A stretch of 64,000 bases of DNA from Gnetum montanum (taxonomy: Eukaryota > Plantae > Gnetophyta), in contig MNCI01002587.1 of the NCBI GenBank assembly GCA_015680685.1, positions 124,001 to 188,000 on the forward strand. Direction: 5' to 3'. Of the stretch, positions 217-59,894 are shown piece by piece (within the stretch, counting starts at the first letter, position 1; every line of letters begins with the position of its first letter). Position numbers and translations under genes: made by a program. Below the pieces are notes generated by a model. It saw nothing but the letters and a program-made list of their open reading frames with translations. It was not told the DNA's origin and ran no database searches.

Positions 217-317
217 CTGCAAGAAACCGAAATGTCACGATAAATTAGCCATACATGAAAATGAGGTGAAAAACAAAATTTCACATTGTAGGCCGACACT
301 TAGAAAAATTACTAACT

Positions 318-1420
318 ATTTACGCTCGGCGTATATGCTGCCTAACCCAGTGTATACGCTGTCAAAAAACTGTTTACGCTTAGCGTATACGCTACCTAAC
401 CTGGGGTATACGCTGTCCAAAAATTGTTTACACTCAGCATATATGCTACCTAACCCAGCATATATGCTATCAAAAAACTATTTACGCTCGATGTATGCAC
501 TACCTAACCCAGCGTATACACTATCAAAAAACTTTATACACTGTCAAAAAACTATTTACGCTGTTGAACAAACTGCTTACGCTCAGCGTATACGCTGTGA
601 AAATCATCAGCGTATACGCCGTGAAAGCCTTCAGTGTATACGCTACGTAAATAGTTTACGCTGAACACTGTGTAAATAGTCAGCATATACGTTGTAAAAA
701 AAAATAGTCAGCGTATACGCTGTGAAAATCATCTATGCTTCATACTGATAAAATCATCTACACTTCATGCTAGTAAAAGTGTTTACGCTGTGCACAAACA
801 AAACAGATTACGCTACAAACAATTTACACTATATACAGTATACGCTATACGCTATAGAGACCCTCTATGCTGTGAACCTATGCTCAGCGTATAGGCCCTG
901 TACACTAATTTTCTATGTCGAGCGTATACGCCAAAACCCTCTACGCTACAAAAATTGCCTATGCCAAAATAACATGTATATACAAAAATAACTAATAGAG
1001 GCAGGATTAGGGCCTACCTATGTGACGATCCAGGCCACGATGGAACCCTCGACCTGGGCAGACACTGCAGCATGGCCTTTCTCTCCTTCGTGAAATTCAT
1101 ATCAGGCCCCTTTCTCCCCTAGCCTTCCACCTCCTTGCCCTTGCCCATTTCAGCATTCTCTACGCTGGGATTGACAGGTTTACATTGATAATCAAAACCG
1201 CTCACGCCTACGTTGAGCCTCTATGATGGGGTCTGAGTATCTACGCTCACGCTTTAAGCCTCTATGCTCACGCTGAGCCTCTACGCAGGACTTGGAGGTT
1301 TACGCTGGGGTTTGGTTGTTTACACTTACGCTCAGGGTTTCATCATCTACGCTTATGCTCAAGGTTTACGCTATGCTCACCGTTTACGCTTACGCTCGAT
1401 GTCTATGTTCACTTCAAATT
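318..1420. repeat. E1 motif array, core TACGCTG / palindrome CAGCGTATACGCTG
   Basis: Dozens of tacgct/agcgta copies; ~57-bp tandem units at 320-560; the ORFs here are repeat artefacts. Confidence 0.85.
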
Positions 1421-6867: not shown

Positions 6868-8185
6868 TGAAACACCACAAAATTTCAAGCTTAGTACTTC
6901 TCCAACAAGAATCGGGCTAAGTCATGACATTCCTTAGCATGACTAAAGCTTGAGGGCCCCACAGAAAGCTTCAAGCGGAGTCAAACTCAACAAGAAGCAG
7001 GTCCCTGGGACCTACAGACGACCATGATGATGTCTAGTATCAGACATGGTAACTTCGAAGATCAAGATACTTAGTTTTCACTAAGTATGCATTCTCAGCG
7101 TATATGCCCCAACATATATGCTCAAGTTTACATTCTCAGCGTATATGCCCAGCGTATATGCCCAGCGTATATGCCCAGCGTATACACCTAGCGTATACAC
7201 CTAGCGTATACGCTCAAGTTTACACCCACAGCATATATGCTTCACAAGTACGTTCAGCCTGTACGACTGATGCATACGCTCGACATGCAATCCCTGAAGA
7301 TGGCATGGAAACAGCACTGCAGAGAAAAATTTTGTACAAGGCAGTAACTTACATGAATAGAGCAACAATCAGCACATACGCCCAGCACATCCAGCATATA
7401 TGCCCAACATGTATAGCATATACACCCAACGTATGTCCTGCATGCCCGACGTATACGCCCAGAGTCTACGCTCGCCTGATACAGCGTATACACCAAGCAG
7501 ATGTAACATGTTGTACACTTGTAAATTTTATTCTTTCACACCCGGTCAACATGCCACGTGTCACCCAACCCGAGTCTAACATCTAAACCTGTATAAAAAT
7601 CTCAATTTTTCATTAGATCGGGGTTGGCAACTTTGAGCAAACTAGAGAGAAAAGACACTAAGAACCAAAGCAGAGAACCTTATACACTGGACCTCAACCC
7701 TGTACGTTGAACATATAGCCTCTACGCTATGCCTATAGTCTGAACCAGCACACAGTCATCCCTACATCCACCGGGGCTATTCATCCTCCTTGTGTGAAAG
7801 CCACAACTACGTTAGACCGGTGCATTCTAACTCTCACTTTGCAATAATATTGCTGCATTTTCTTTCTCAAATCTGTTACATTTTTCCATTTTTTTTTGCA
7901 TGTTTGCTACTTATGCTTTGGTACGTTTACGCTCCGTTTACATCAGTTACGTTGTTTACGCTCTATTTTACATCTTTTACATCATTTACATATAACCCAG
8001 TGTATAGCACCTCGGTGTATATTTGGGAAAATCCTTGCCTAATCCACACGCGGACCACTCAAGGTACTCTACCTTCAATTAATTCTAACTTGCCCTCAAG
8101 AGAAGGTAGGGTCTTCTGTGCATGTCCGGATATCTCCCAGTCTCTGTTTCCTTCCAACTGGAGACCGATGATTTCGGACGGTACA
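6868..8185 (+). repeat. E1 3' LTR (~1.3 kb), with PPT at 6855-6867
   Basis: TG...CA termini shared with the other Tat LTRs; cagcgtata array at 7090-7500; TATA-like gtataaaa ~7591. Confidence 0.9.
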
Positions 8186-16099: not shown

Positions 16100-17135
16100 T
16101 GCTAGCGTGAGTTGGGCATCTGGATTGCAGCGTGAGCATCATCGTCAACGTCAGCATGAGCTACAATGTGAGTTACAGGGTAGCCATGAAGGGCAAAGGG
16201 AAAGCAAGTTGAGGCAAAGGGAAGAGGCAAGAAAATCTGGCATTTTTGGAGGAGAGTAAAGAGCTACTCCAGCATCTCCCCTAAGCCAGGATTCCAACAT
16301 GGGATGGAGCTCTGAATAGGTAGATTTGTTTCCTCTTGTTTTCTATAGTATTCTATTCACAGCGTTAGCTAGGGTAGCATGACTTCTATGGTCATGATTT
16401 TGGGTTGTTCTTGGGGATTCAGGGCATGATTGGGGCGTGAGTGGCCCAGGAAGTGCACAGTCAAATAGTTAGATTTTTTTTGTTTTTTTCATTTTTACAT
16501 ATGGGACGAGTGTAGCATGACTGCCAGGGCTTTCTGGGCAGTGTGAGCTTTTAGGCAGGCCCCAGTGTGCATTTTAGGGATGCCCAGCATGAATGACAGT
16601 CTAGGGCAAGCCAACATGAGTGGTTTAGGATGTGAGTGCCTAGGGGATGTGTAGGGCGTGAGTGCCCAGGGAATGTACACAGTGTGAGTGCCTAGGGAAT
16701 GCGCAAGGCATGTGTAGGATGAGTTGGATCTCTTTACATTTTGTTCACTAAGTGTTAGGGATATCTAGGGTAGTGTGAGCTTTTTCCAAGGCAGCGTGAG
16801 CTACATTGCAGGGGGAGGCTTGGTTTTTTTTGGCATTGTGAGCTACGTTGTATGGTTAGTTTCCAACATGAATGCCAAGGCTTCTTGGGTAGCATCAATT
16901 TTTCTTGTGCAGTGTGACTGCCAGGGCTTCCTGGGCAACATGAGCACAAGGTTCCCTGGGCAACATGATCTGCAAGGTTCTTAGCATGAGTTAGAATGCA
17001 GGAAACCTAGTGTGATTTTTGCAGGAGATAGGCAACATGAGTTACTGGGAACAGGCCCCAGCATGAGTTGCTGGGAACAGGCCCAGCATGAGTTCCTACA
17101 GCGTGAGTTACTAGGAACAGGCCTAGTGTGAGTGT
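16100..17135. repeat. E2 motif array, core CAGCGTGAG/CTCACGCTG (deaminated to catgag, gtgtgag)
   Basis: Many agcatgag/agcgtgag/agtgtgag copies; positional equivalent of E1 318-1420. Confidence 0.8.
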
Positions 17136-17342: not shown

Positions 17343-20300
17343 ATGTAAGAGATTTCAATGTACCCCAGCGAGCATTAAGTATACTAAATAAATATTGGTG
17401 TCCTTGTCTCATGGGGTGAAGCTGTGTGATTAAATGTTATTTATGTGTTTGGTTTATGTGATTGCATACTATTGTTAGCACTTAGACTCTTTACTTACCT
17501 AATGTTTTGGCTGTATGCAGGGAACCTAAACCTTCTCTTCTTGTGGTTGAGCTTGTTGGTGTACATGCTTGGTTTGGCCCCTTTGGACCAGACATACCTC
17601 CTTATGACATGCGCATTGGGCCTCATGTAATATGGTTTCATCCCAGTGTTGGTTCATTTTTGTCATTCATCTTGCAAAATTTTAGTGTGATTATATGGTC
17701 TCACTTAAGTGAATAGTTGGCTCTTGATATCATTGAGACAATGTTGCTCAGGTCTACACAAGACATGCTTGCCTTCATTACCGACATAGATGAGGGACCT
17801 TTTAAAGTTGAGGGAGGCCCTGATGAGGGTCCTAAATCTATTTTTCCTTTGACTTGTGTATGGGAACTGCCTACTTGTTGCCATTATAACAGTAGCAACA
17901 CACTTTTCCTAACCTTTCGTCTGCACACTCTATTCCAAAATCCACTTGGGACACTGTATAGACTGGACAGGTATGCTCTTTTCTAATTTGCTTAATTTTT
18001 GATTCTTTTAAAATTATACAGTTTTCTATGCATAAATATTATTTTTCTATGCAGGCCTCGATTTGATGAGAATGGGATGCATGATGATGATGGTGGGCTT
18101 GCATTAGCACACACAGTGTTGGAGGCATTCATGGTGGGCCCCATTCTTCATGCTACGATACTATACCAGACAAAAGTGGCTATTGTTAACTACCATAGGC
18201 AATTCTCAAGGGATTTTGAATGTTTTCAAGTTTGTGGTTGGTTGCATGAGGATTAGTCTTCTAATGGGTCAATTTTTCCTCAGAGCATTGGTCCTACACC
18301 TAATGTGCCTATGCCATTTACTGATGGTAAATGATCACATTCTAGACTCCATTTTCTTTTTGTTGCATCATCGTGTACTATATTTTTAACCTTTCTCTTT
18401 GTGTTTTTTTTTACAGTAGCCATCTTTTCTGATGAAGTTACCATTGTATTAGGGCATACTGAGGCCACCCATTTTATGAAATATGGGGAGGTAGAGCAGT
18501 CACAACAATGGTTGCAGAAGAAAGCTCCTGAGTTGATCATCAGTTGCCTTACCTTAGTAGGTCTGATGGACTTGTTCACTACTTTGACTCCAAATGTTCC
18601 GACGATTGAGATGATCACTATTGTAGATTCTTTCAGTGATGATGCTTCCCATTTTACTACACGAGTTCAAGGAGTTAAGGTATCTTTCCACCTGACCATT
18701 GTGTTCCTTTTCAATCTTTTTGGCATGCCCATGAATGGTGCCAGGGTGGCCATAGATAAAGCAACTAAAGAAGGCTAGGTCATAAAAGAGCTTGAAGAGT
18801 GGTTAGGCGTGTCTTGGGGTCCTAAAGGTTTTTCCATATAAAATGATACCTAATCACTAGAGATGAACTTCTTGTACCCTCTCTTTCGGGAACGAGCATT
18901 CCCTAAATCTATCTCTCAAGGAAGAAACCTTGGGATCGAGTCTGCACGTGTCATACACGTAATCTTAGAGATATGCATGCATTATAACTAGGCACAGTTT
19001 CTTGGATCTAGCTTTCATGGAGAGATTTTTAGGTTACGTTCAAACATCAACACCAAATCCCATTTCATGTTTGCTTTCTTCACAAGGTACCTATGTAGGT
19101 TTGCTGAGTTCCTAGTAGTTTATGGTGATAACCGTTATATATTGAGAGATCATTCATAGTTGTCCTGCCCCTGGATTCATCATTTGTTTAGCACCACTAG
19201 ATCTCAGGACCCACCCAATGGCATCGATGAATCAGTGTTTGTTACTACTAGGGGTGTAGCTAGTAGTTCCCATCATTCCTATGATAGTTTGGGATTGGAA
19301 CTGCCTATACTGCACACGTTTGTTAAAGGGGCTGAACATATGATCCATGAGACCGTCGGAAGATCTAAGGTGAAGGTGAAGAGAAATGAACACCCAAGGG
19401 AGCTTGCTCCTGACGTGAGACCACCAAGAGTGAAGAGGATCCGCTTCATATTACGAGTGGAGGGTGAGTGTTTTTTATTTTATTGTTATGTATTTATATT
19501 TATTTATTTTTTAGTTTATATGTTTATTAATCATACGTATATGCTATGTCATACGAACACTAGGATTCTAGTGTTATTAGAGGAAAGTCCTGAGAGGGAG
19601 AGAGAAGTCTTGGCCTCGATGGTTGAACCAGAAGTGATTGTCACAAGGCCAGGGGAAGAAGCAATCAAGAAACCTCCTTCTCCACAAGAGAAAGATGTGA
19701 CAAGCATCGTGGGGACAAAGCTTGCTGAGGCTTTGGATGCACTTAGGCATTCAAGTGATGAAAGAGGTGTTTTCGATGGTTTCTTTGATGGATCTTTGCA
19801 ACTTGGTGATCCGCCCAAGCTTACTAGCAAAGGGATTTTTGGTATGTTCCTTTTAGCACAATCCATGTTTTCATACCTTTTAACTTTTATGTGTTGTTCT
19901 TGATTATCTTGATTATTCCTAACATTAGAGGTAGATGCGAAGGTTTCTAAGGCACATACATCCTGGATGGAGGTGTTAGGATCACAGGCCCCATTTGAGG
20001 TACCCTCCCATGCTTGTCCCACCTCCACTAACCAGCTAAGGCCATGGCCTGAGATGCCTAGTAAAATGGATTTTTTCACAGGCATCGTTAATGATATGGT
20101 CGCTCACCTACAACAAGCTCATCCAAAACTAGGTATATGTATGTTATGTATTATGCTAAGTGTTTGGATTTATTGTGTTTCTTTGCATTCATCATTTTTT
20201 TTAGATAATAGCTTATTCATGTGTGTGATTCTTACACCTACAGGTGCCGAGCTTCAATGGGATCCTTCTGAGGCTACTCATATTGATGCCCTCCCTGAAT

Positions 20301-21196
20301 TGCCAAGGAATATTGAGCAAGTCCCTAGAAAGGTTTACGATGCAATTTTTAGTTGCATCGTACTAAATGCCAAGTCACTTTGGACTTGTAGGAATTCAAT
20401 TGAATATCTATGAGACGAGGTGCAATCACTGAGGGAAGCACTAGCAAATGAGAGAGAGGAGAAGAGGGATCTCCAATCCTATTATGATTTTTCTGCTACA
20501 AGGCTATTTGGTGATAGCACCTGGTGCACATCTGAAATCACCTATGCACGTTACTAGATGGTTTTGAACAGCAAAGTGTAGGCGAAATGGGATTTAGTAG
20601 AATAAAGCGCACATATGGATTTGCTGAATAGGAAATGTTACGATTGGAAATCCTTTACTACTAAAGTATGGAAGTGGGGTCAGGAGCAAAAGGATCACAA
20701 GAATTAGTACAAGAAATGGTTAAAGGAGGAGTCTATTGAACATCGTCGGATGGAAATGTTCATTGATGGGCTAGGCTTGCATCCTACTTATGATAGGTTT
20801 GCCAAGTGCACCAAGGTGGAGGGATCTCCCAAGAGAATCATTACAACTGCCTCTAAGGAGGCTTCGACAGGCATGTTCTCTCTCGAGCACCCTACCTGGA
20901 CTTTGGTGGAAAAGGGTAAAACCTTAGCTGGTATTGATCTTGGCCTAGAGGAGGATTGGGCAAATGTGCCTGAGAAGGAGATTCTATGGCTTTTGGAGGC
21001 CAGCCTAAGGCCTTCCTCACTTATGAGTATTTTATTATGGCACTTACTTTTGTATGGTTTTATTGTTTTTATTGTTAGTATTATTGTTTTTTCTGGCTTT
21101 GCATTCCGAGTTGTTTTATTACTCTTACCAGTTTTTTTGTTTTTTATTCTATTATAGGGACATGTTAATGATGGAGATGGTCCCCCAATTGAGTGA
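17343..21196 (+). pseudogene. E2 antisense multi-exon accessory gene (~1000 aa): FCP1/SCP-like pseudo-phosphatase + plant transposon protein-like domain + coiled coil
   Basis: Phase-consistent GT-AG exons 17343-17344, 17521-17970, 18055-18326, 18417-19463, 19581-19841, 19929-20132, 20244-~21023, and a possible 21158-21196; no frameshift; stops are single C>T or G>A changes. Confidence 0.8.
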
Positions 21197-21594
21197 GAGC
21201 GGATGATGAAGAGGATCTTGGGGACAAACCCCTTCCATAAGGTTATTGTTAATTAGGATTTAGCTATTAAATGTTTTGGATTTTTGGATGTTTGATGGAA
21301 ATATATGATGGAAAAATGTAATAATATGGATCTAATCATGGCATAATGTGTTGGAATTTCATTACCATATTGACATTTAGTATTTTTTTTATTTTTAAAT
21401 GATTTCTCTTTTTGTTTGTTTTCTCAAGTATTATCATGAACATATGTGTATAGCTAAATGTAAAATGAGGGAACAAAACATAAATCCAATATTTGTAGAA
21501 GAGGAAAGTAATGAGAAGGCATGAATCAAAATTGTAACTTGTAAACAAACATTTAACGTAGTGTAACAAGAGTTTGTGAATTTGTACATCTTGA

Positions 21595-25600: not shown

Positions 25601-25609
25601 GGATTTCAT

Positions 25610-25770
25610 AGTGAGCATGAATAAACTGGGCTGGACGAGTTGAGCGTGAGTAACTGACAGCGTGAGAAAACTAACAACGTGAGCAAGCTAAGAGTGTGAC
25701 CAAGCTGACAACGTAACTGATAGTGTGAGTAACCGACAGCATGAGCAAGCTAACAACATGAGTAATTGAC
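25610..25770. repeat. ~18-bp tandem repeat of the E2 motif in the 5' leader
   Basis: agcgtgagtaactgac / agcgtgagcaagctgac units. Confidence 0.75.
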
Positions 25771-26041: not shown

Positions 26042-26047
26042 ATTTAT

Positions 26048-27736: not shown

Positions 27737-27995
27737 ATAAAGGTTGATGATTTTAGTAAGGAAATTAACTTAAAGGATCATCAAGAAGAGGAATTTGAGT
27801 TTAAGTCTAAACCAAAGTTAGACACCTTCATTAGAAGTCTTTTCTAATGTTCAGCTTCCCAAACAACTACACCTAACTCCATGTCTCTTCCCTCATCGGT
27901 CGGACAAGTCCCTCAGCCTAATTCCCCTCATGTCCACTCTACCATGTTTGAGTCTACATTCATTATTGTCACACACCAAGCATAATGCATGCCTC

Positions 27996-28864: not shown

Positions 28865-29109
28865 TACCCCCACAATTAAATGAAAACTCATCCTTAAGTA
28901 AACAAAGGAGGAAGAAGTTCTTTATAAAATTTTGGGAAGGTATGGGATTATTAACTAACTACAGATACACAAAAAAAAACATGACAAAAACATAAGTTTC
29001 CATGTAGATTTACAATCATTACAAATATTGGTATTTTGGATAACAACATTGAACACCATGACAAGAAATGATAACAAAACTCCTTAGATGACCTAAATAT
29101 GATGAAAAA

Positions 29110-33199: not shown

Positions 33200-34920
33200 G
33201 TTAGTTTGATGATGGCCTCCCCCATGATTGTGGATTTTTCCACTGTGGTTGATAGAAGGTCCTTCTAGGATAGTACTATTGGTTATAGGACTTTATATAA
33301 TTACCTTGTGGATAGGGCATTCTCCTAGAATTTTCCTTTTTCACAAACTTGGGGATCAAATTAAATGCTCCAAACTCTTGTAGATGCAACATAACTAGGC
33401 AATAGCCCTTTGGATGCTCATATTGGTAAATATCGCATCCATCATCTTCTTTTACACTTGAGTCTACAACCTCCTCCACTATAGTCATTTTTACTTTTTA
33501 TTGGTAGGTGTTCCTATCTATTTCATTGTTGTTTTTCCTCTTTTTGTTTTTATTACTTGATTCTTCTTGCACTATCTTCTCTTTTATAGTTTCTAAGTAG
33601 GTCGTAACTTTTTCATTCATTTACTCCCACATCTTATCTAGCCTTGCTTCAAGCTTCGAGATAGTTGATTGTATTAGCAAGGTCTATTGTAAAATCAACA
33701 AATTGAGAGATTCATTTTTTTTCCTTATCATACATATGGAATTCTCTTGTTTGAAGAGTTGGATCCTGGTTATATTCCTCAACACTCTTCCTTTTACATA
33801 GCTCTCCCTCTTCTTTTGCCACCTGCTCCACAAGCCCTCGTATCTAATGGGATCTCAATTCCTATAGTTTTCCTTGGGTGTAGATCCCAAGGGTCTTCCT
33901 TGTTTGGTTATGAAGCCTGCCTATGATTTTGAAAAGTTTCTCTTCTTAAGAAAACCCATGACCTAGACATCTTTGTAGAAGAGAATAGTATCTATCCAAG
34001 GTCACATCCAAAGATTCATGATTTTCTTTCTTGCATCATTGGATTTTTTTTTCTAGATTGGATACTCTCTCATAGGTTTGGTATTTTTCATTGAAAATCT
34101 CAAGCATTATGGACCATCGATGGATTGAATCTAGCTCTAAAAATCTATACCAATTTTCAGCTTCTCTATGAGTGTCCTAGGGAAGAGCTTAAGCATTTTC
34201 TAGTTACTTTCAATATTCTACAAGGTGTAGGCATTGAAAAATTCTTGTAAATGATGTTGTGGATTAGAGTTATAGCCACCCTTAAATATACAAATTTTAT
34301 TCATATCTAATCATTTGATGCAACTTTCCCTTTAATGCTTATGAGGCATTCTAACTACCTTCCAATTCTATGTCATGCTCCTAGTCACCAACAAGGGTTC
34401 ATTTCCATCAAACATGTCATCATGATAATTATCATTTCTATTTGTTTGATAGTGATGGTCTCACCTATGCACATTTTAATGTTTTTTATTTTGCTTTTAA
34501 TATTTATTTCTAGTTCCATCTTAACTCCTTAGTGTATCCTTATTTCTATACCTATGTTCATCTTCATCATAACTAGACATTAAAAAGGAAGAGAAAGATG
34601 GAGAACTAGGAGAATCACCATGGCTCTTATAGTTCTCCCAATGGTCCCTTGATGTATCCTTTCTAAATTTAGAGGAGGTCCTTGGCCTTAAGGTTCTCCT
34701 TATTCTAGGGTCAATTCCATCCCCTCTACACCAGTTGAATGTATTTCTTGCATGTAGTAGAAGTGGAAATGGGCATATGAAACACCTACATGAGGTTGTT
34801 CATTCCAACTTTCTTCAATATAGAACTTATCATTTCTCCTATGAGTGTCCTCATCATACAATGCATTATTAGTCCTATATGAAGGAGACATGCTTTCAAT
34901 TAATACAGAGTATGACATGA
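33200..34920 (-). pseudogene. gag: E3 gag remnant
   Basis: Minus strand ...FKGGYNSNPQHHLQEF...LKLFPRTL gag core; 33200-33900 homologous to E5 56300-57000. Confidence 0.65.
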
Positions 34921-35025
34921 AATACTAATATTTCTAAAAAGATAAATCATTAATACTATTCCAGTGATCATTTAGTGATTTCACTATTGTCCTAGATAGT
35001 GCACATAGCTTGGCAATGATGCCAA

Positions 35026-35891
35026 TGATGAGCAATGAGTATACCCTATGCCCAATCATACAAAACACTAGCATTCACTAAGTGATCTAGTTGAATTACA
35101 TAGACTTTAGCTATCTGAGTGCAATGGGTCTAAGAGGTGAATCTACAAATCATGATCATTATCTTCTTAGTTCCACTTGTGAGGTGCAAGTGTATGATTA
35201 AGTGTAACTAAGGCATCTAATTTTTATCATTTTATCTTTTATTATTTTAATCACCTAAGTGCTAAAAATAAAATAAATTTAATATTTAATTAACCTAATT
35301 AATCTAGAAACTAACTAATACTTAACTAATTTTAACATAAGCATTTTTTCCAACTTTTTGTACACATCCTAAACACGTTGCAATGCTACTAGGTTACCAA
35401 ACATTAGGCACTAGTAGGATTGCTAAGTGTTAATGTATGCTTGAAGTGATCATACTTTGGTTTACTATTTCATTGATATTAATCACTTGATTACAATTCA
35501 TTTAAGTAAAGTGCATGAATAATAAATGCATAAGAAAACATTATTCTATTCCAAGTGCTACAAGGTTTTATCTAGAAAAGCTTGTCTTTTTTGTCATTCA
35601 CACTAAGGTGCTTAGGTACATTAGTGCTCAAATAAAGATCCATGCACTTCTTTGACTCCTACTATGGGCACTCAAAAAATATTCTAACTTTTGAAAGGAA
35701 AAACTATAAGAGCTTCAGTACAAATAATTAAAATATTATCATAAATGCAATGGGTAGGTGAACATTTATAGCTAAAAAGGGTACACATCAACGTAGCAAA
35801 TCCTATGTCTTTGGAATCACGTCGATGAGATTCCATCATAGGTTCACATCAACAGCATCCAATCGACACATCCAAGTAACAAGATTCATTA
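35026..35891 (-). repeat. E3 5' LTR
   Basis: Direct repeat of 27996-28864; followed by the PBS on minus. Confidence 0.9.
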
Positions 35892-38850
35892 GCCTTATTT
35901 CACCTCCTTATTTCCATCAATGTCCTTTGCCACATAACCTCACTCCATTCACATAGCCTTGGTGATGTCTACTTCATCATCTTCCTTTGTTATACTAGTA
36001 GGATTCTCATTGGGACCCCAAGAAACAAAAGCATCTCATAATTCTTCCGTCCCCTTCATATCGCAAGTTCTAACTCAAACTTCTTTTTCTTTGTTTAAAC
36101 CACCTATGACAGTGATCACATGACCTCTTCCCTCTATGATAATGTTAATTTTACAACCTAAATCCTCACAAATTCCTCCTCAACCTTTAACAAAAACACC
36201 ATAGCCCATAGGGATGCCCCAATTCTTGGATCAAGCCTCTTAAAAGATCCAATACCTTACCAAAGTGCTATGAGAACTCAAGGCTAATACAACTCAGATG
36301 ATCAAGGTTCTAGACTTTTACCAAGAAGATCCTATAACCCATATGGTGCCTCAAATAATCTTATCCAGAGGTTTTCCTATTTCAAACTTCACCAAATACA
36401 ATGCTAAAGTGGATCCCAATGCACAACTAGTCACCTTCTAGTCTAAGTACCTCTTTTTGCAAGCTTGGTCACATATGATACTATGCATTTTCCTCATGTC
36501 CCTTAAAGGTAAATATCTAGATTGGTATCAAACCTTGCCTACATGTTTCTTCTCTTTCCTTAAGAACGTAATTAACCATTTTTTCAATCATTTCAAAATA
36601 AAACTTAAAGCTAAATGCCATGTTGGACCAATTGATGAAGGTGAAGTAGGAGCTACTTGAACAAATCAAAATGTTCATTCAGAGATGGAATTTAGTATTC
36701 AATGAGATTTCAAAGCCTATCTTTGAAACCCATCTCTTTCCCATCTACAAGGGAGTAATAAATGACTTTATTAAGTTAAATGTTTACTATCTAAAGCCCC
36801 AATTGCTAAGCCAAGCCTTCTCACAAACTAAGAATATCAAGGAGGTAGTTGAGGCTAGCAAATATGTAGCCTATGTGGTATACAAAAACCAATACACCAG
36901 AGGGGATAAGAATAAAACCAAGTAAGAAAGTACCACTATGGTTGTAGTAGCAAAATACTCAAAATAAGGCTAGTGGCAAGGATCAATACCTCACAACACA
37001 TCTTTTGACTCATCCTAGTCATCCACTTCTTACACTCCAAATCAACTAAGACCAAACTTTGGGTGGAAGGATAGGTATAAGTACACTACGTTTCTTATGA
37101 CGCCCTCTAAGCTCCTAGAATAGTTTCTTAAAGATGACCATATACAACATAAGCAACTATTTGAAGAGGCTTGTAAGAGGTACAATCATCTTTGTGACAT
37201 AGCCAAAGACCCAATGATAGCTACCAAAGAAGATCCCAAGCTACCAAAGTACTTTAAACTAGATAGGTATTGCCAGTATCATAAAATGGCTGGTCATGAC
37301 ACTAATTTTTTGCCTAGCATTAAAGGATGACCTTTAAAAGATGATAGACCATAAAGAGTTTGTGTTAAATGAGCCCAACACTCCAAGAGCTAATAAAAAC
37401 TCTTATATTGTAGCCTCATTCACAAAAACCAAATGGTCTAATCCTCCTAGGAATTTTTTCACCATCAAAATATCACTGCAACCCTAAAACACAAATCCTA
37501 GAGAGTCCTTTGTCATATGAGTATCATCTTCTTTGACCTCTAATAAGCCTTTCATCATACATGTTCCCCCTTTGGTATCTTCAACATCACAATGCAATCA
37601 ACAAGTTACTAATCCTTCAAAGCCTAAGAAACCATTCATTATCTGTGTCCCCGTCTCCCCCACCCCACCTTCTTCCATCTTCAACAAGTAAGAACACAAT
37701 AACTAGCGACCAAAGGCTGCCTATTGTATCCAAAAACTCATTGGTTAACAAGAAATCATCATCCCAATAGTGGCAAAAGCAACCTAGAGCCAAACCAACA
37801 AATAATCCCACTAAAGGTAGCCCACCTAAACCCACACCAAGATCAAATACATCCATAGACAAGGGGCCCAAGGCACATACATCAAAACCTAAGCTAAAAA
37901 ATCTAGGAAGGATGGAAGAAGTTAAAACTACTAAAGCTGAAGGGTCACACACCAAGAAAAATAATTTCCTTACAACAATAGAACAAGTCAAAAAGTTATT
38001 GAAACAAAATAACATGTCACAAAACTTTTATGACTTGATCATGACTTCTGCTACTCATAGAGATGCACTATCCCAAGTGCTAATCTTTATCCCTATGGGC
38101 AAAGACATGCCCACCAATAACAAATAAATTAACTTTATCATTAAGCAAGCTTTGTTTAGGGAAAACAAACATCAACCAATGCTTAACTTTTGTGATAGTG
38201 AAGTAAAGATTGAATCTACAAATAAATAAGTCCTATCCTCTCCTCTCCTTATCACCATACATGTTGGAACATACAAAGTCCATTAAGTTCATGTGGATGA
38301 TGAGACAACAACTAATGTGGTACCATTTTCTATTCTTGACAAACTAGGCTTTATTGAGAACATCCAAGAAACTACAACCTCAACACTCAAGTTATTTAAT
38401 GGATCATGAGTAGTCATGCAAGTTTCTATTTCCTTTGATTTAATAGCTAGAGAGTAGTTTTCCACATCTATCAACTTCCTAGTGGTTGAAGAGACACCTA
38501 GCTTCAACTTAATTGTAGAAAAACCATGGTTAGCTAAGGTTCATGCAATCTAATCCCCTATACATCAAGAGATTCACTTGCCCTATGAGGGAGGGGAAAT
38601 TGTCATTCATGGAGACAACATTTCACTATCTTCAACTAGCTATGTCAACATCAACCAAGGTTCAAAGATGGAGTTTTAAGAGAAAATTCATGAAACTCAA
38701 GTTGAGGCTAGATCCAACAAAACCAAAAATAATAACAATGAAGCTAAACTCATCAAAAGCAATCAACAAAAGAACCTATCAATTTCTATTTCAAAAAAGT
38801 AGCATGATGAGACTACAATCATGTAAAGAAAGCTCTTTGATTTATTAAAG
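35892..38850 (+). pseudogene. gag: E4 gag-protease remnant
   Basis: MSLKGKYLDWY, FIQRWNLVFNEISKPI, YCQYHKMAGHDTN, VHVDDETTTNVVP; colinear with E2 gag-protease. Confidence 0.88.
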
Positions 38851-39464
38851 GTCAAACAAAAAATGCATTGTAAATATATTATCCCTTCTATTGCTAAAAA
38901 AAGCTTGTTCACCTTCAAAACCTTATACCATGTTTCATGAATTGTTTTATTCCTATACGTCTTTTTAATGCTATTCCATACTTGCTAGGTAGGCATGGAC
39001 CATGGTCCACCAAGAGCAAAAATTGGCAAATCACATGGTATACCATGGTCTAAAATTGGAAAATCGCATTTCTTGTCATGGCCTAACATTATAAAAACAT
39101 CATAACTTATTTGCAATTTAGTTTACAACCATGCCACCTAGTCAATTTTTCTTCTTTATTACATTATAACCATGTAAGTTAGCAAACTCACCCTTATACC
39201 ATAATCGTAACATGAAACTGTGGAACATGAATGAAACCCTCCTTCCCTAATTCATTCACTAAACTAAGGATGAACTAGTAGTTCAAAAGGAGGAAATTTT
39301 TAACAATGCTAGGATGGTGGGAGATTAAAAAATCAAAAAAAAAATTAAATTTGGATGGGCCTTACTAGAAACCTCCCAACCAATGGGGTTTAAGGCCTAA
39401 AACCCCTCTACACTAAGGTTTAACCCATATGAAGCCTAGAAAAACATCTTTTAACTTGAAACCC

Positions 39465-41565
39465 CCCTCACCCATGCCTATCAAGGTGGATCTATTATGG
39501 GTTTAAGCATCCCATGCCTAAAATAAGACGACCTAAGCATCCTATGCCAAATGTAGCAACTAGGTTTCAACATCAAAAAACACCAAGCCCTAATAGGGAT
39601 TAGAATCCATCATACTACCTTCCATACTTGGCAACAATTCTAAGTAAGAGTTCATCCACATTGGCCAGCATTGCTCAAGGGGGGATGACATTCACAAGCA
39701 TAAACCAAGCCATAATTTAACTCAAAAATGGTCTAACCAAGCCTAAAACCTCTACAGAAGCCTTTGGTAGCCTTTAAATCTTATCAAACCTAATCAAAAG
39801 TCTTAAAAACCATGAAATTTAGTGTAGCCACATTGAGGGTCATCCCATCCACACTAGCCCTAACGTGGTTAGGTGGGGTGCGACCATGAAATACTAAAAT
39901 TAACCTTCTAGTCGATACATCATGACCTTAACACCTCCTTGGAGTCCTCAATATCCAAATATTGAACAAAAATAAGTTAAATCTAGCGCCAAACCCCGAT
40001 GCCCATGTTGAGGAACCCCTCACCCACACTAGCTAGCATGGATCTAGTGTGGGTACCTTAGGGATGACTCATAAAAACCCATTAATACATCAAAATAGCC
40101 TTAAAACTCATCACTATGATCTTAAAACCTTCCCAAAGTCTCCAACCATTACACATCAAGTAAAAACTAGTCACACTTGACCACATACTACTTAATCGTG
40201 CTAAGGAAGGCTTCACCCATGCTGGCCAATGTGGATCTAGCATGGGTACCATGAAGAGAGCCCATGGGAAGCTCATAACTACACCACATTGACTTCAAGT
40301 TTCATTACATTGATCCTAGAATCCTGTCAAGGCCTCTAAAGGTCATTAAGCCCTATAAAACAAGCCCAAAGTAGTGAAAAGTTATCATTCCCCCTTCACC
40401 TATGCTAGGACCATGCTGGCCAATGTGGCCCAAGTGGAAATAACCAGAAAGAATATAAAAAAGCCTTAAAAATTGTCAATTTTGAGGCCAAATCCTAGCT
40501 ATTGACATCAACAACCCTAGGATCTTGAATACTTAGTTGATTTGGTACCAAAAACCACTAGAAGTTAGTGCTCCAATGTAGACATGCTAGGGAAGGCCAG
40601 AGCCATGTTGGCTAGCATGGCTCTAGTGTGGTTATGATTTTTTACTTATTTTGGTAGTACTTCAACACATAAAAAAACCTAGAACATATCCCAGTAGTGC
40701 CTCAGTCCCCAAGGCATTAAACTAATGATAATTTAGCCTTATTTCAACCATTAAAACCCATCATACCCCCTCACCCACGCTAGAGCAACATTGGCCAACA
40801 TGGCTAAGGGGGGTATAACCATACCAAAGATAAAAAACCATGAAACATGAGCAATTGTAAGCCTGAACCTCCAACATGACCACTGGAAACCTAGATACTT
40901 GAAAATTTAATTTCATTAGCTTTGAAACTCACTAGGAACCAAAAATCAAGTATATCCACACTAAACGACATTAGATCCATGCTAGTCGGTGTGGCCCTTG
41001 CATGAATAAGGTTCCTAACAAGCTTCTACCCATATGACACTCATCAAATGGACTTAAAACTTGATTTTGGGAGCATACAACTAGAAAACCCTGGATTCAA
41101 CTACAATTCGACCTTTTCTAACTCTACAATCACCAAGGCAAGGCTATCCACTCTAGCCAACATGGCTTTAAGGGGTAAGACCTCAAAACCCACTTTTGTT
41201 GTAAATTCTAACCTCCAGAATGATTAATTTTGACCATTATAACCTTATGTTATCCTCAGAATCCCATAGAACATTAATTTTTATCCTTTGGACACCATAT
41301 GTTAATTTTTCTCACACACCCACACTAGGGCCACGTTGGCCAATGTTGCTCCAACATGGATGGTAATTATAGGCTTCATGCATGACTTCCATTAGGTCAA
41401 ATTAATATCAAAAATTATAAATTTACTTCCCTAACATACTATTCTAATCATAAAAACTCTCAGGAATCCAAAACTTATCAAAATCAACCTAAGAAATCAT
41501 ATAACCACCTTGTGCATATTGGGGGTCACCCCACCCATGCTAGCTAGTGTGGGTCCAACATGGAT
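39465..41565. repeat. Phased array of palindrome CCACGCTGGCCAGCGTGG (decayed), 12 copies ~188 bp apart
   Basis: Copies at ~39471, 39656, 39849, 40024, 40217, 40411, 40603, 40787, 40977, 41148, 41331 and 41535, with dissimilar A-rich spacers. Confidence 0.8.
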
Positions 41566-43495
41566 GCCTAGAAAAACATCATTTTGACCGAAAACAACAT
41601 CAAAAGAGCCTTCTTGGATGCCCAAACTCACTTATCAACTTTGTAGCCTCTTACCATGGCCTTCTAAGGCCTAAAACGAGCAAAATCTAATCCTCATTGA
41701 TCCACATTAACCATGTTTTACCACATATTTTTCACATTGATAGATTTGGCCTTGCTTCAAAGAGTTTCAACTTATTTTGACCTTGTTATGAATCATAGAA
41801 TTTCATTGTCAACATTTAGTTGTCAATTGGTTTCATTCCATGCTATTTGGCCTTTGTTCCACCTTATCTACCTTATATCCTCTCTCATGACCCTTGTTGA
41901 CCATGCTTTGATATTGATTTTATGTGTTTTGACCCATATTTGCTTTATTGTTAGAGTATTTTGCATTGTTTTAACAATATTTTATTACATAGGTGCCACT
42001 TGATGTGCTTATGTTATCATGCAAGATTGATCTCGAAGGATGAGGGAGCAAATTTGACTAGCCTTAAAGCCTAAATGGATCCCTCTTGTAATGTTGTTAG
42101 ACTAAGTTGACCTAATGTACCCAAATCTTAAGCCTAAAATCATTCTACTATGTAGTCATAACACCTTGAAGTAGCCCAATGATCATTGACCTCAAAGGTG
42201 AAAACATCATGGAGGGTTCCTTAGTCAAAATTTCCATCTAAATCTTGATGGTGCGAAGAAAATACATGGAACCAAGTTCCTCACCAGAATTTAAACCTAT
42301 TGAAGAAAATATCAAACCCTTTTAGTGCAACATTGAAATCCATCACATGGCCCTTTATTACATTTAAGACTCACATGTTTGCTTGTAGTGTTGTTTATCA
42401 TTATTGAAAGGTTGCAACGAATGACTGATGTTAACAACTCTAATGATCTACAACAAGCATGCATGCATGCTCTGTGTGTGTGTGTGTGTGTGTTTAACAC
42501 AAAGAATGAACTACAAAACATTGTAAATATGATGCACATCACACAAATCCCTCAATGCTATGACAATGATAACCTATTGTGACATGGTCTACTAGTTGTT
42601 TCATGTGGCCTATGCACTTACTTTGTAACAACAACTTTTCTTTGTCTTGTTTTCTTGTTTTCTTCGAGTTGTTCTTGCAAGATGAAGCCTAAAGTCATCA
42701 CAAGGAGTACAACTCATCATGATAGCAAGTTACCACGTGACTTTGATACACAAGATTTGGTTAGCTTGTCCTACCATACCAAGAGTGCTTGTTTTACATC
42801 ATTTCCATTATCATTCCCTGTAGCCCAACCCTATAGCCTAATTATAGTCTTCCTTTCCATAAATAATAATGGTTACTAATTTTTTATGCACATGATATAT
42901 GGCCATTCAACATTTCCTGTATCATGCTCCATCATCAAGTTCATTAGATGTAACACATCTTGTTCAATAGAAAAAAAAATTAAATTTGGCCTTGACAAGA
43001 GAACCCAATGAAGGTTTCACCACACAAAGAAAATAAAGGGGGAAACATATGGCCAAGAAGCCAAAAGGTTAGTGAAGCTAAAAATATAAACCAAAGGTTC
43101 CAAATATGCAAAGGGAGGAGCCTAATAGCCAAGGAGACATAGGAGTATGATATTGGTCCCTCAAGAACATTACTGGGTGATCTTTATCTCAAAAACACAA
43201 AGCATGAAGACCTCATTTGTTAGTCAAAATTTCATTTCCATATCTATAGCCATGATTCCAACATTTGGAACTTATTGCTAACTCTTCTGACCACTTTCTC
43301 ATAACCAAATATAGTCTTTAATCTCTATCACCTCACCATAACCTTATCTCATCATCACAAGCACTCTTTGGCAAGGTTTGATAATACTAAATCAAGCATG
43401 AATAAGGAGCATTAATGATGGACCTATGATGGTGTTTTCTATTCTTTGTCAATGTCTCTCTAGTCCATCTTCCAAACATCAACAAAAGGGATCAA

Positions 43496-45001
43496 TGAAA
43501 CACCACCTAGAAAATTCATGTTGCAATCTCTTAGCATTACAACAATATTCTCCCACAAAATCCAAGGCTAAAAACTCTTTGTAATATACGAAGATTATAA
43601 TCCATGAGATGCAATTTCACATACTTTAACTTTTGAGGTGAAAAAATTCTTCATAAATTATTGTAGCCTGCTTCCCAAGTGGAACAAATCCTACCATGTC
43701 TATATTTTAACTTAGAAATGTCAAAAATGCCTTTTGAACTACCAAAATGGGCATTTTCATGAGTTTTTTGGGGTGTACAAACTTTGCTATGCTAGAGTCA
43801 CCTATGCTCACTAATGGAAGGTTTATCTCCTACAACCTAGCATTGCTCCTGTAGCTTAGTGTTGCTTCTGTAGCCTAGCATTGCTCCAATAGCCTCAACA
43901 TTGCTCCAATAGCCTAGTGTTGCTCCAGTAGCCTAGCATTGCTTTAGTAACCCAACATTGCTCTAGTAGCCTCAACGTTGCTCTAGTAGCCCAACATTAC
44001 TCCTACCACCCAACGGTGCTCTTACAACTCCAATGTTGCTCTTAAAAGACCAACAATTTTCACTACTCTCAACGTTGCTCCACAAAGCTAGCATTGGAGT
44101 GGTTGTGGGTTTGGTTTCTTCATAAAGCCAACGTTGCTACCACAAGACCAGCATTGATGGGTGAGCCTAGCATGGTTGGAAAATTTCATTTACTATTTAT
44201 GGTAAACAACATAGTTTTGATGACATAGAAGTATTTAAACTTATCATAAATGGAAACTACATTGAAACCAAAGGCATGATACACCTGTAAATTATACCAA
44301 TCTATCAATAATCATGGTAGAAATTTGCAATACCAAAACCAGTAACTCTATGACCTATAAATAAAAATTTCAAACACATTGAAGAGGTTTATTTTGATTC
44401 TTTTGGGGGTGGAGAAAATTTCACAACCTTGAGCACCAAGAAACCATTGGAATTTGTAAGAATTTTGGGGTAGATTGGCCTCTACTTGAACATTGGAGAC
44501 TCTCAGCATAGTACTATTTCACCAAAAGTTAAACATACCTTACCCACCTTTGTACCAATGTTGTAGATCCAATCTAAAAACCACCAAGGTGTTTTGGTGT
44601 TAGAAGTTGGGAAGTACATGGATCATGAAGCTGACTACAACACATAACCTACTAGCTTCAACAGCCTTCAAGATTTATCTAAGTAACTCCTTTGTGCATT
44701 TAGGCACACAACTTGTATACGTTGAACTCATACTTTGGAATATTTTTCATTATTTCAATAAAGTGTTTAGTTCATTCATTGTACAAGTTCATTCCATGAT
44801 TAATTTCTATGCTTTCCTTTTAATTATATTTGCATTTTATTTAAATTATTTATCTCATTTACACTTCCTAAGTTCCTAGGTGATCGACAAGACCATCCAA
44901 GGTGCCTTGGATCCTCTTTCTCGGAGGCCCTTGGGATCCAAGGTCAAGTTGTTTCATTGGAATTTTCAGTTTTCCAACAACCAAATTTTTTAGGCATTAC
45001 A
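43496..45001 (+). repeat. E4 3' LTR, with ~20-bp tandem repeat (cccagcgttgctcc-type) at 43835-44175
   Basis: PPT aaaagggatcaa + TGAAACACCACC; ctataaata ~44356; ends ...ggcattaca. Confidence 0.85.
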
Positions 45002-46341: not shown

Positions 46342-47419
46342 TGATAAGCAATGGGTAGTCGCTATGTTCAACCATATGAATCACAAGCATTCACATGTGA
46401 TCTAGTCAAATTCTAGGAACTTATTTACCTAAGTGGCTAATATTCCTAAATGTTGAATTATGTCATTTTAAGTAGTTATCTTCCCAACCCATACTTGTAT
46501 TAATCTATGCATACGGTTTAAGTGTAGTTGAGACATAAGATATCTATTTTTATAATTTTTATTATTTTACATTTTCATTACTAAATGATGAAATAAATAA
46601 AGACTTAATAATCAAATTAACTATCCTAATGTAAAGTATCCATTCCTACTTGTCATACACATCCTGAATCTATATTAATGTTTTCAGGTTACCAAGTGTA
46701 TATTACTGAGTATACCAAATATTCACTATTTGGATTACCAAATGTTAACACATCATGATCTAACTACTTGTATTTACATTCCTTATGAACAATAATATTA
46801 ATTACTTAATAATAAGAATGTAAATTGATAAAAAGTAGAATTATGCTAATCTAAGTGTTGCAATAAATAGAGGAAATCTCAATTTTATTTTCATCCATGA
46901 AAATGTGTCCACATACATATTCATTCAAATAAAATGATGTATAATGTCTTAAATCCACACTACGGGCACTCAAAGGAAAAATATTATCACATTCTCAAAA
47001 TGAAACTACAAGCATTTGGCTAACACTATAATCAAAAGATGTCATAGATGTAGGGGGTATGTGCATTTATATAGGCAACACCTACATTAGTGTCAATGTG
47101 CCTGTATGAGTGCATTAATGAGGATATGTTGATAGGGATGCATCGATGAGCACACATTGACATAGCCTATTTTATTAATGATTCATCATACCCTTATAAT
47201 TGACTAAAAACATGTCCTCAAGTGAACAAAATTGGGATCAAGTTTCTTACAAAATTTAGGAAAGTATTAGACTTTATTAATAAATAGACTAACTAATTAA
47301 ATCTAAGTAACTCTAAGTACCAGATTGTACACATTTACAAAAATGAGTGTACTTTTATGACAAAATTAGATACTTAGATAAAATTTTAACAAACACCTAT
47401 TAAATGGATGGAGACATGT

Positions 47420-50265
47420 TGAAACCTCATATGATGCCTGGAGGTGTGGGTTTTTATGGCTTGGATGGTCCTTCATCGCATCCCAATGCTATTAGAGGAT
47501 GAGGCTGCCCTACTATTACTGCTAGTGCTAGTGGAAGTTTAAAAGAATTTAGGAGTACTTTCATCTTCTCCTCCTTACTCCATGGATTTTAAATGGTATA
47601 GGTTGCTTTGCCTATATGAGCTAGTGTAGGAATATCCCAAGGGCATACCATTTAAAGAAACATTTCCTTCATGTTGATAAACTAGGCTATGAATGTATTA
47701 TGTTTAATATTAAACATCTTTATGAGGTTCTATAGCTCTTCGTAGTCATTCATCCTCTTTTCCAAGTTCTTAGAAATAGTTCATTGATTAGTGAACCTAC
47801 TTCTAAGAACTTCAAGCTCTACATTGGTTGTCTCCAACATTTTTTTTATTTCCTTATGAAGCTTGAACTCTGCCTCATAAAGGAGGTAGAAGCTAGTAGT
47901 CTGGTTTTCCAAGTTAGTTCTTGATCTTCCTACTATTAGAATTGCTAAGTTTTTATATTAGAGGTTGGCAAAATCAATGTACTTTGTCATCTCCTTAATA
48001 AAAAAATCATTTAAGAAAATTTCTTCCCTATTATATGCATTTAGTCTATCAAAGATGGACTTCCATACATCATCTCTTTGCTTGAGTTACTGAAGAACCT
48101 CATTCATCTTTACCTTAGCTAGTTTTATTTCCTTCTCATTAACTTCCTTGGCTATTCCAACCTAAGACTTGTAATTATTTATCATTATTTGAATTTTAGG
48201 GCCACATTCTTTGAGGTAGCTACCTCAATTGCAATCCTTTGGTGAATAGCACAAATCTCCTCCATCAAGAAATTCCTATTTTGCTATCAATCTTCTCAAG
48301 TCCAAGTTCACATTGGCAAAATTTATTCTATTGCTGGCATATATATTTGATCATCTTTTCCTTCTTCTACTTAGCATCCTGTAGATAATGATTTTCCTTC
48401 ATAAGAACCAATTTCTCCTTGCAAACTTGCGATAAGTCATTATCAAAATTATTGGGCATAGCCTCTAACATGAACATGGTGAAGTTCACCATATGTTTTG
48501 AATTTTTGACCTCTTGATATTTTTGTAGAATTTTTTGAAAAGCTTCATCTCATGAAATCTCTAACTAGAGAATGATAAGGATGGAGAGAAAAGCTCTTAA
48601 CTCTGCAACTTTAGTTGCCAGTGATTGATTGGTCATGGTGGCCTCCTTAAGCTATGCATTTGCAACCAACAACGTGCTCCTTATCTTGAGAAACTATGAC
48701 TATTTTTTAGTAATCTCATCCATGAGATCAAAGATCTCTAGAAGTAATTTCTCAACTCCTACTAGTCTTTCCAACACATCCTCATGTTGGGTAGTGCTTA
48801 TCTGACCACTGCATGCTCCTGCGAACACATGGATATCTACCATGGTAGCTATGTCTAGTACAAACACTATAGGAGCATTAAGGACTCTAGCTACTCAATT
48901 ACTCATGATCTCTACCACTATCTTTTGACCCTTGTGCAACATTACCAAGACCATTATCCTTTCACCTTCCTCTAATTTGGCAAGCAAGGTCACTTCATTT
49001 CCCAAAATTTCAAGAAATGCTTGTCCAAGAATGGACACAATGACTTTTCTTATACTTGGATGGGATCTCATGGGATTCTTGTTTTTGCTATGTAGAGAAT
49101 AGTGGTCTTGTCTCACTATACAACCACCTAATAATCCTTGCAACCTTATTTAGAGAACTCATGGCTAGATGATAGGCACATGACTCTTCACCACCTATAA
49201 ATCCTTACTGTTGTTTTAGCTACTACTCCTAAAATTTTTTGAGTTGTTCTATAGCTCCAAGAATCTCTAATGTGATTTCTAAAATTGTAGGTGATGGTAG
49301 TAACGGTAGCTCCTCTTCCTTTAGCATTTTTGCTACCTTACCCTTTATCATCTCTTTCCATGATCTAATAGGAGCATAGCGAACTACATTATTTAATTAG
49401 TGAGTCATCTACCTCTCCTTTTACTTAATTTTTGAAATAAGCATAATAAGAGGAGTGTCTTTCTATCCTTATTATTCTTAAAGCATTTCTTGATCTCCAA
49501 AAAGATGGGTTGGGGTAGGTTAATAGGAAATTTTCCACTTAGAGCCACACAAGCCCTAGTAGAGAAGATTGTCATGTTACATAACCTCACCATTTGGTTT
49601 AGGTAATAGGCTGCTATTTTGAAGTAAGCTCATTCCATCTTCATTAGGACATTCACTTCATAGTATCAATAGAACCATTTGTTTTTTGCTCCTAGGTTTT
49701 CCTATGTAGAAATTTTAGCATGTTTTTTTCCTAGTTTTGGAAAAACCAAGTGGTATAGCTATGGCCTCAACTAAATAAGAGATGGTGATGTATTTGATTC
49801 TCACCAACACATATCCTTGTTAGTTTTTCCAAAACAAGTATGTCTCCTCCCATGTCCCACTCTTCATTATTGGTGAGAATAGATCATAAGGGAGACCCCT
49901 ACAATTGTATTCTGAACTTCTTTGATACCAACTTCAATATGGATCCAATATTTAACCCCTATAGAATGAAACTTTGGACCTTCTTAGTCCTAATTCACTC
50001 TAGGAAAGCTTCTATAAGGGTGACCTTAAGGTTAGATCTTGGCCTGGAACCCTCATCCTACCTAGATTGACCTATCTCCATAGTGAAAATTTGCTGAATA
50101 GATTCCACTTTAGGTTCCCCTCAAAGTAGCCATGTAGTATGTGTTACCTTAGCTACTTATTCATGGGGTTGCTGTTGCTATTGTTATTAGTACCTTCCTC
50201 CTCAAGATTGCTTTTCCTTGGGTTGTAATGATCCTTCCACCTATGGTCTTTGTTTGGTGTCATCT
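47420..50265 (-). pseudogene. E5 3' accessory ORF remnant (plant transposon protein-like N-half, coiled-coil C-half)
   Basis: ORF pieces 49405-49593 and 48895-49143; homologous to E3 29110-30676. Confidence 0.6.

Positions 50266-59853: not shown

Positions 59854-59856
<3 letters not shown>

Positions 59857-59893: not shown

Positions 59894-59894
<1 letters not shown>

Follow-up and report, generated by a model that had tools for sequence, protein, structure and literature searches.

Palindromes at near-nucleosomal spacing in a pol-less Tat/Ogre-like retrotransposon of Gnetum montanum

Described motif arrays in plant mobile elements

The RMs of Sireviruses (SIRE, Ty1/copia) have been proposed as cis-regulators (Bousios 2010 PMC2829016; Bousios 2016 PMC4728375). 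As described in the available parts of these papers, the RM is a short, CG-containing palindromic motif that is family-specific around a shared core and that forms clusters in the upper LTR and in the internal non-coding region. A comparable distribution is found for three neighbouring elements (E1, E2 and E4) in the window, by which we mean the whole stretch of 64,000 nucleotides analysed here, and this element-specific sharing of a motif between LTR and internal region extends the Sirevirus pattern to Ty3/gypsy elements. In particular, Sirevirus LTR motifs are given as beginning 200-400 bp past the PPT junction (PMC2829016, available part), and those of E4 begin 341 bp past it. Note, however, that the RM core is CGG-CCG in Ty1/copia SIRE elements whereas the core here is CAGCGT in Ty3/gypsy elements of the Tat clade, which places the motif outside the RM definition. 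Moreover, the copies in the E4 LTR are half-sites rather than palindromes, and its internal copies lie ~188 bp apart, at whole helical turns. In the accounts available, Sireviruses that have no extra gene also lack internal copies, whereas E4 has internal copies and no extra gene or encoded factor was found in it.

In the VANC target arrays of VANDAL elements (Hosaka 2017 PMC5735166, available text), a family-specific motif of ~9 bp is tandemly duplicated in non-coding DNA and differs between related families. In E4, too, tandem duplication has multiplied a family-specific motif within a non-coding region. VANC sites differ in that they share one orientation, are bound by an element-encoded protein that lowers methylation and belong to Mutator-like transposons; no VANC/PMD-type protein was found in E4. 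(The word 'nucleosome' does not occur in the main text of PMC5735166.) A further paper, PMC13547354, links VANC to MAIN and an ATLANTYS domain to ASY2, and in its available part describes no such array.

Internal arrays of Tat, Ogre and Retand elements are common, seed satellite DNA and have no known function (Vicient 2025 PMC11963269, available part). They resemble the array in E4 in lying within a long non-coding region, in being family-specific and copied with the element, and in that relatives carry antisense ORFs (PMC7004042, PMC6317226 and PMC11963269, each in its available part). The arrays known from these sources lie between pol and the 3' LTR and were found by tandem-repeat finders, whereas the array in E4 was not reported by Tandem Repeats Finder (TRF) and keeps only a motif and a helical phase. 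In the pol-bearing neighbours E1 and E2 the motif clusters lie between protease and RT, and the spacer of E2 at this place measures 6.6 kb as against an Ogre average of 274 bp. Retand elements carry an antisense TRP28 (PF04195) ORF between pol and the 3' LTR, whereas the antisense frames of E2 precede pol.

With the nucleosome-positioning satellites and CRM2 phasing of maize, and with 10n+5 linkers, the array shares an AA/TT period of ~10 bp, a repeat of ~190 bp and length steps of one helical turn. According to the available part of PMC3053214, the homogenised CentC shows no phasing by monomer, phasing in CRM2 comes with no AA/TT period, and neither has a palindrome in each repeat; for E4 the nucleosome positions are predicted ones. 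By analogy, the array would work most like the Sirevirus RMs and the VANC target arrays, while belonging to neither, and is best regarded as a Tat-type internal array. In the openly accessible literature, subscription journals aside, the sources available describe neither palindromes at nucleosome spacing in an LTR element of plants nor a motif shared between LTR and spacer in Tat elements.

A pol-less element with a palindrome array

The window consists of nested, decayed plant retrotransposon DNA, with a CpG observed/expected ratio of 0.09-0.15 in its oldest parts. E1 (+ strand) and E2 (- strand) both have the domain order RT, RNase H, RVT_3 (second RNase H) and integrase. The aRH in pol assigns both to the Tat clade (Ty3/gypsy, OTA), and its position between RH and integrase fits the Ogre and Retand subclades, this arrangement being that of Ogre and Retand (Neumann 2019, PMC6317226, available part). 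The best matches of the E1 pol are angiosperm polyproteins with the same domain set at only 40-42% identity, which argues that the lineage is distant from annotated ones.

E4 has a gag-protease region with 40-50% amino-acid identity to that of E2, interrupted by stops and frameshifts. Homology to RT, RNase H and integrase is absent from 38680 to 43497 by tblastn with the E1 pol, and a Pfam scan found no pol domains in 28001-42003. (The Pfam scan covered ~42 kb of the window together with short pieces of 42003-64000; tblastn for pol covered 42003-64000.) E4, itself pol-less, is assigned to the group of E1 and E2 through its gag-protease homology and its PPT/LTR junction. Its 5' LTR, PBS and TSD were not found within the window, where the 3' LTR has no upstream match. 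TR-GAG-like non-autonomous elements carry gag and protease only, without RT, RH or integrase, between two matching LTRs with a TSD. E4 has this domain content, which bears out its earlier description as non-autonomous. The main features of E4 are as follows.

36301..38676, + strand: gag-protease region (tblastn E 1e-25 to 1e-56 against E2)
39465..41565, no strand assigned: array of 12 units (10 clear, 1 with a 2-bp insertion, 1 weak), each a palindrome of CCACGCTGG followed by CCAGCGTGG, with diverged spacers
41700..41992, + strand: T-rich tract ending in AG, splice-acceptor-like, common to E4 and the E6 fragment
43430..43506, + strand: polypurine tract and 3' LTR start (TG at 43496); junction 74-77% alike to E1, E2 and E6

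The array thus follows the gag-protease region of a pol-less Tat/Ogre-like LTR retrotransposon. The initial annotation had placed it where E2 has its intron and antisense gene; this is borne out only loosely, as the array does follow the protease region in the way of the 6.6-kb spacer of E2, but the two share no detectable sequence, and homology to the antisense ORF is absent between 38680 and 43497. The E6 fragment (57998-59850, - strand) is a sister of the E4 3' region, 67-75% alike, and is truncated by the TTA microsatellite at 59856-59894, immediately before the place of the array; its LTR carries a 34-bp repeat at 57652-57934.

Ten copies match the 18-bp palindrome with at most 5 mismatches, and no such match occurs elsewhere in the 64 kb (starts at 39656, 40024, 40217, 40411, 40603, 40786, 40977, 41148, 41331 and 41535). 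The units, in order, are the following.

39472..39489: unit 1, core, weak, 7 mismatches
39656..39673: unit 2, core
39849..39868: unit 3, core with a 2-bp insertion at its centre
40024..40052: unit 4, core and right half-site at +11
40217..40245: unit 5, core and right half-site at +11
40400..40428: unit 6, core and left half-site at -20
40603..40631: unit 7, core and right half-site at +11, with a further left half-site at -30
40775..40803: unit 8, core and left half-site at -20
40977..40994: unit 9, core, with a left half-site at -30
41148..41165: unit 10, core
41320..41359: unit 11, core flanked by half-sites left and right
41535..41563: unit 12, core and right half-site at +11

Of the twelve decayed copies originally listed, eleven therefore stand (one of them with the insertion), but the twelfth is weak: the 7-mismatch level of unit 1 is also reached at 24 places outside the array, so that this unit is counted by its position only. 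Because each unit contains one inverted junction, its centre is unambiguous, and the centre-to-centre spacings are 184, 194, 174, 193, 194, 192, 183, 191, 171, 183 and 204 bp. These 11 intervals have a mean of 187.5 bp (sd 9.6, range 171-204), in agreement with the ~188 bp originally noted. The frequent third half-site was likewise borne out, with 12 extra half-sites as compared with 3 background matches in 853 spacer positions. Measured from the palindrome centre, 3 units have one at -20, 4 at -30/-31 and 5 at +11, which amounts to steps of ~10.5 bp, one helical turn each.

Contigs of 335, 713 and 513 bp from public runs match the array with 1-3 differences, which argues that the array is present in reads and is no assembly artefact; one of the DNA runs, X1, may stem from the source sample. 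We also compared contigs at least 80% alike to this copy of E4. All 30 bins of 38700-43500 were covered in each of the four DNA runs, which come from 3 studies under 4 organism labels. Coverage was mostly from contigs less than 95% alike, and among the differences listed one within the array was common to up to 37 contigs of run X1. At 40988 in unit 9 this copy has G and the other genomic copies have the A of the motif. Among the matches listed, five pieces (242-457 bp) are collinear across motif and spacer at 13-21% difference, so that the array is in register in other copies of E4. By comparison, spacers differ by at least 39% from unit to unit. That units differ far more than do copies of one unit argues that an already diverged array was amplified whole, within the element. 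Ogre elements have a spliced intron between GAG-PROT and RT. On 37400-43700, where E4 has its acceptor-like tract, RNA runs gave 34, 23, 104 and 60 reads, nearly all of them partial and less than 90% alike, with no joints. A scan of metagenome contigs for the two-motif pattern gave no matches, and a scan of viral contigs with the E1 pol gave no relatives.

Divergence of the spacers and conservation of the motif

The spacers had been taken to be unrelated to each other, which is not the case: alignment of the 55 spacer pairs gave z>3 for 7 of them (highest 7.8, 7.4, 7.1 and 5.4), as compared with none of 55 control pairs from the flanks. The spacers are therefore old copies of each other and the array arose by tandem duplication. 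The best pairs have 56-61% identity with 12-21% transversions, and most pairs are near chance, identity over all pairs being 0.561 as against 0.552 for shuffled sequences. With this level of identity and no TRF report, a homogenised satellite was rejected. A CRISPR array was rejected too, as had been anticipated despite a superficial likeness: the setting is a plant retrotransposon, the spacers are partly homologous to each other, and there was no Pfam cas match in 42 kb and no Rfam match.

The motif is much better kept than the spacers, as originally proposed. Pairwise transversions in the core amount to 5.4%, as compared with 12-21% in the best spacer pairs, and equal those that separate the E3 insertion's two repeats (5.6%). 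Moreover, deaminated positions in the motif make up 40 of 96 at CG/CHG and 3 of 72 at CHH, and the changes are strand-symmetric (C>T 21, G>A 22). From the predominance of CG/CHG sites and this symmetry, the motif was probably intact when this copy of E4 inserted and decayed afterwards under methylation.

These data bear on whether the array might be an ordinary hypervariable Tat/Ogre tandem array undergoing unselected decay, in which the motif is simply the best part picked out and slippage produced the 10-bp steps. The homology of the seven spacer pairs fits such an origin, as does the fact that arrays of this kind are common in Tat elements and are without known function in the available parts of PMC7004042 and PMC11963269. 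In neutral star simulations of 12-copy arrays (3000 runs each, best 18-bp window chosen, no indels), an 18-mer of matching conservation appeared in 53% of runs when pairwise transversions stood at 11%, in 5.5% at 15%, in 1.0% at 16%, in 0.3% at 18% and in none at 21%. Conservation of the motif is thus non-significant (p 0.53-0.055) if the true divergence of the spacers is only 11-15% transversions. However, simulated spacers align at z 9-17, in simulations that lack indels, as compared with an observed z of 1.6, which argues that the true divergence is probably above the 11-21% range. The motif is therefore conserved beyond simulated neutral decay, the simulations being simple models of our own. 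Neutral simulations fail to reproduce this conservation at realistic divergence, and fail also on the retained AA/TT period described below. Unselected decay leaves unexplained a perfect palindrome at the conserved place, and likewise the half-site in the LTR. We consider an unselected array of this kind quite improbable.

Helical phase, LTR half-sites and a predicted chromatin role

The spacings are quantised: they cluster at multiples of 10.2-10.5 bp (Rayleigh R 0.79, p 0.0005-0.00075 from 4000 random sets). Note that, with half-sites recurring every 11 bp, slippage in such steps could quantise the lengths without selection. The AA/TT power of the array is 3.85 at 10.25 bp, above that of all 83 non-overlapping 2.1-kb segments (median 1.58, next highest 2.5). 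With a WW measure the array again ranks first (3.51, with the E6 3' region close at 3.42), and with an SS measure it is exceeded by 2 of the 83. The AA/TT period is phase-locked with respect to the motif centres (R 0.74 on the left and 0.68 on the right; p 0.0015), and 7 of the 11 spacers are individually periodic at p<=0.04; the remaining four, taken singly, are not significantly periodic (S1 p 0.86, S8 0.30, S10 0.10, S11 0.07). Coherence of the motif-centre phase over the entire array is modest (best R 0.65, a value given without a null comparison). When neutral decay was simulated from three present-day spacers under 15 settings of 150 runs each, no run reached the observed power of 5.74. 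Nor does a 10-bp minisatellite ancestor fit, since a power of 4.8 requires a lag-10 identity of 0.55 as compared with the observed 0.33. Spacer identity has thus been nearly lost while motif, helical phase and nucleosome-sized repeat have been kept, a combination that may indicate what selection acted upon.

The periodic tract extends beyond the motifs.

39000..42000, no strand assigned: tract with raised 10-bp AA/TT periodicity, reaching 400-500 bp beyond the motifs on each side

The period is also not exclusive to the array, as 600-bp blocks of E1 and E6 reach an AA/TT power of 5.2-5.4. The E6 block at 59400-60000 is 10-bp periodic in the same way, and a GC-rich 29-bp repeat directly upstream of the E1 RT (1674-1843) lies inside a strong 10-bp AA/TT block.

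With its 10-bp AA/TT period and a repeat near the nucleosome repeat length, the array has the two properties looked for in nucleosome-positioning DNA. Assuming a core of 147 bp, the linkers would measure ~27, 37, 47 and 57 bp, near the 10n+5 class. According to the available parts of the respective papers, yeast linkers fall in this class (Wang 2008 PMC2522279), modelling ties 10n+5 linkers to a distinct fibre topology (Norouzi 2015 PMC5271602), and nucleosome spacing in maize is ~190 bp (Gent 2011 PMC3053214), which may not be the value of the host. With a cosine WW/SS dyad model, the best dyad avoided both palindromes in 7, 7 and 6 of the 11 intervals (chance 0.22), the model being crude and partly circular because it is built on the same periodicity; for S1, S7 and S8 it prefers the motif itself. 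The initial annotation had proposed one site per nucleosome or linker, and three added signals (whole-turn spacing, the phase-locked AA/TT period and the dyad model) speak for this proposal.

The reading that we favour, at somewhat better than an even chance, is that of a selected cis-regulatory array in which the spacers would carry nucleosomes and the linkers the factor sites. Tandem duplication made the array inside a pol-less Tat/Ogre-like element, and selection on DNA geometry during the active life of the family would have kept motif, phase and period. Each spacer would seat one nucleosome, leaving the motif in each linker for a sequence-specific protein, and this putative factor may bind the half-site as a dimer or oligomer on one helical face. 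The array would thereby keep the element transcribable, as an enhancer or by anti-silencing; later, this copy decayed through symmetric CG/CHG deamination. If the phasing is real, the locus would amount to a nucleosome array of natural origin, encoded in sequence and with linker sites built in, and a chromatin switch, if true, would be the first such role shown for the repeat arrays common in Tat/Ogre/Retand elements.

The same period and spacing could be read in two other ways. One is that of an enhancer-like or bent-DNA array under selection for its helical phase, with factor sites along one face of curved DNA, whose 188-bp period is merely an inherited monomer length with no role for nucleosomes. 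The extension of the AA/TT period past the motifs and its occurrence in non-coding blocks of E1 and E6 are in keeping with this, as are the short periods at which the motif variants of E1 and E2 recur (see below) and the clustering of Sirevirus motifs in LTR and internal region with no mention of nucleosome spacing in the available text. However, all 11 spacings stay within 171-204 bp despite near-chance divergence of the spacers, and the dyad model favours the spacers; we regard a phase-only role as unlikely. The other is a centromere-type cassette that loads CENH3 nucleosomes, with the palindrome as a CENP-B-box-like site. Its monomer near one nucleosome repeat and its AA/TT period recall CentC, and phased nucleosomes are known on CRM2 (PMC3053214, available part). 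Such a cassette is very improbable here: the element is of the Tat type and not CRM, the units number only 12 and are diverged rather than homogenised, and the motif occurs also in the LTR promoter zone.

We counted half-sites with the pattern CCAGCGT[G/T]G, allowing for CG/CHG decay. The array has 27 (0.5 expected) and the E4 LTR has 11 (0.2 expected), and the other 20 regions have at most 3 each. The clusters are listed here, those of E1 and E2 for comparison.

43837..44175, + strand: half-site cluster in the E4 LTR, n=10 (9 of the CCAGCGTTG type, 1 of the CCAGCGTGG type), 341-679 bp past the LTR start
314..900, no strand assigned: E1 motif cluster of the CAGCGTATA type, upstream of RT
7096..7490, + strand: cluster of the same E1 motif in the E1 LTR
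16103..17132, + strand: E2 motif cluster of the CAGCGTGAG type, in the protease-RT spacer

The half-sites of the E4 LTR, all in a single orientation, are related to those of the array and not identical with them, as 10 of the 11 have TTG in the LTR and 24 of the 27 have TGG in the array. The E1 variant CAGCGTATA occurs 25 times before RT and 14 times in the E1 LTR. The E2 variant CAGCGTGAG occurs 16 times in the protease-RT spacer, 12 and 10 times in the LTRs and 6 times near 25430-25760. The variants are thus element-specific, with the E2-type motif found also in the E1 LTR (7) and the E6 LTR (3); the distal part of the E1 LTR is shared with the E2 LTR. Tables restricted to LTRs gave Fisher p values of 1.6e-6 and 5e-9, which are overstated because the half-sites counted belong to tandem clusters and these same regions supplied the motifs. 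Periods within the E1 and E2 clusters are 13-54 bp, and nucleosome-length spacing of ~188 bp occurs in the internal array of E4 only. E1 and E2 each repeat a CAGCGT-core motif of their own in LTR and internal non-coding regions (1-900, 7096-7490, 9508-10563, 16103-17132, 25430-25762 and 26047-27736), an observation that could stand as a separate finding.

The orientation of the LTR half-sites also bears on whether the array acts in the RNA of the element, as dimerisation or packaging hairpins or as intron structure, either of which could be useful to an element with Gag and protease only. Folding of the array in two halves gave -249 and -251 kcal/mol as compared with -193+/-6 and -197+/-8 for shuffled sequences (8 mononucleotide shuffles each), there is some reverse-complement similarity among the spacers (mean z 1.16, best 5.3), and a T-rich tract with AG lies downstream. 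On the other hand, A-tracts at a 10.2-bp period and spacing in whole turns are characteristic of B-DNA, the extra half-sites, being direct repeats, contribute nothing to pairing, the changes are strand-symmetric with 22 mismatched as compared with 15 G-U pairs, the LTR half-sites all point one way, and a comparison with Rfam gave no match. A function in RNA therefore appears improbable.

The CAGCGT-core motif shared between LTR and internal region is a candidate target for a factor of the transposon anti-silencing or enhancer type. The core may resemble NAC (CGT[G/A]) or G-box sites. As source of the candidate factor, the host and an autonomous relative have near even chances. Broken antisense frames lie in the 6.6-kb protease-RT region of E2 (15550-22160).

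18200..21200, + strand: broken antisense reading frames of E2, for comparison

These frames may resemble Transposase_32/Athila ORF proteins. They matched no Pfam family (decay may hide a domain) and no homologue among proteins of near or greater length, and the stop-free frame at 18335-18778 had no usable atlas match. Since the motif variant of E4 differs from those of E1 and E2, the E2 antisense gene is not obviously the factor. A bolder version of the favoured reading, which we put forward tentatively as a possibility, is that of a VANC-like system in a deep-branching Tat lineage: each family would have evolved a private CAGCGT-core site, repeated in LTR and post-protease spacer alike and read by an element-encoded protein. 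In the pol-less E4 this would have been refined to a sequence-programmed chromatin fibre, with one site per linker at 10n+5-type spacing, by which the element would be held open against methylation.

Other parts of the window contain further elements and repeats. E3 (27984-35826) has 830-bp direct repeats that lie 7 kb apart and are 80-83% alike, a weak gag match on the - strand and, also on that strand, a coiled-coil-like frame that recurs at 47127-48149; it is apparently another pol-less element. Remnants of RT and integrase at 52729-54881 (- strand) belong to a different, more distant gypsy element. A 133-bp inverted repeat at 32807-33185, 99% identical and beside single N bases, is probably an assembly artefact. 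A C-terminal fragment of cytosolic GAPDH at 61032-61208 (+ strand; PDB E 8e-15) lies within CpG-rich, undecayed DNA (60300-62400) and is likely a gene fragment or pseudogene. Finally, a young, CpG-rich composite tandem array with a period of ~210 bp occupies 62358-63349.
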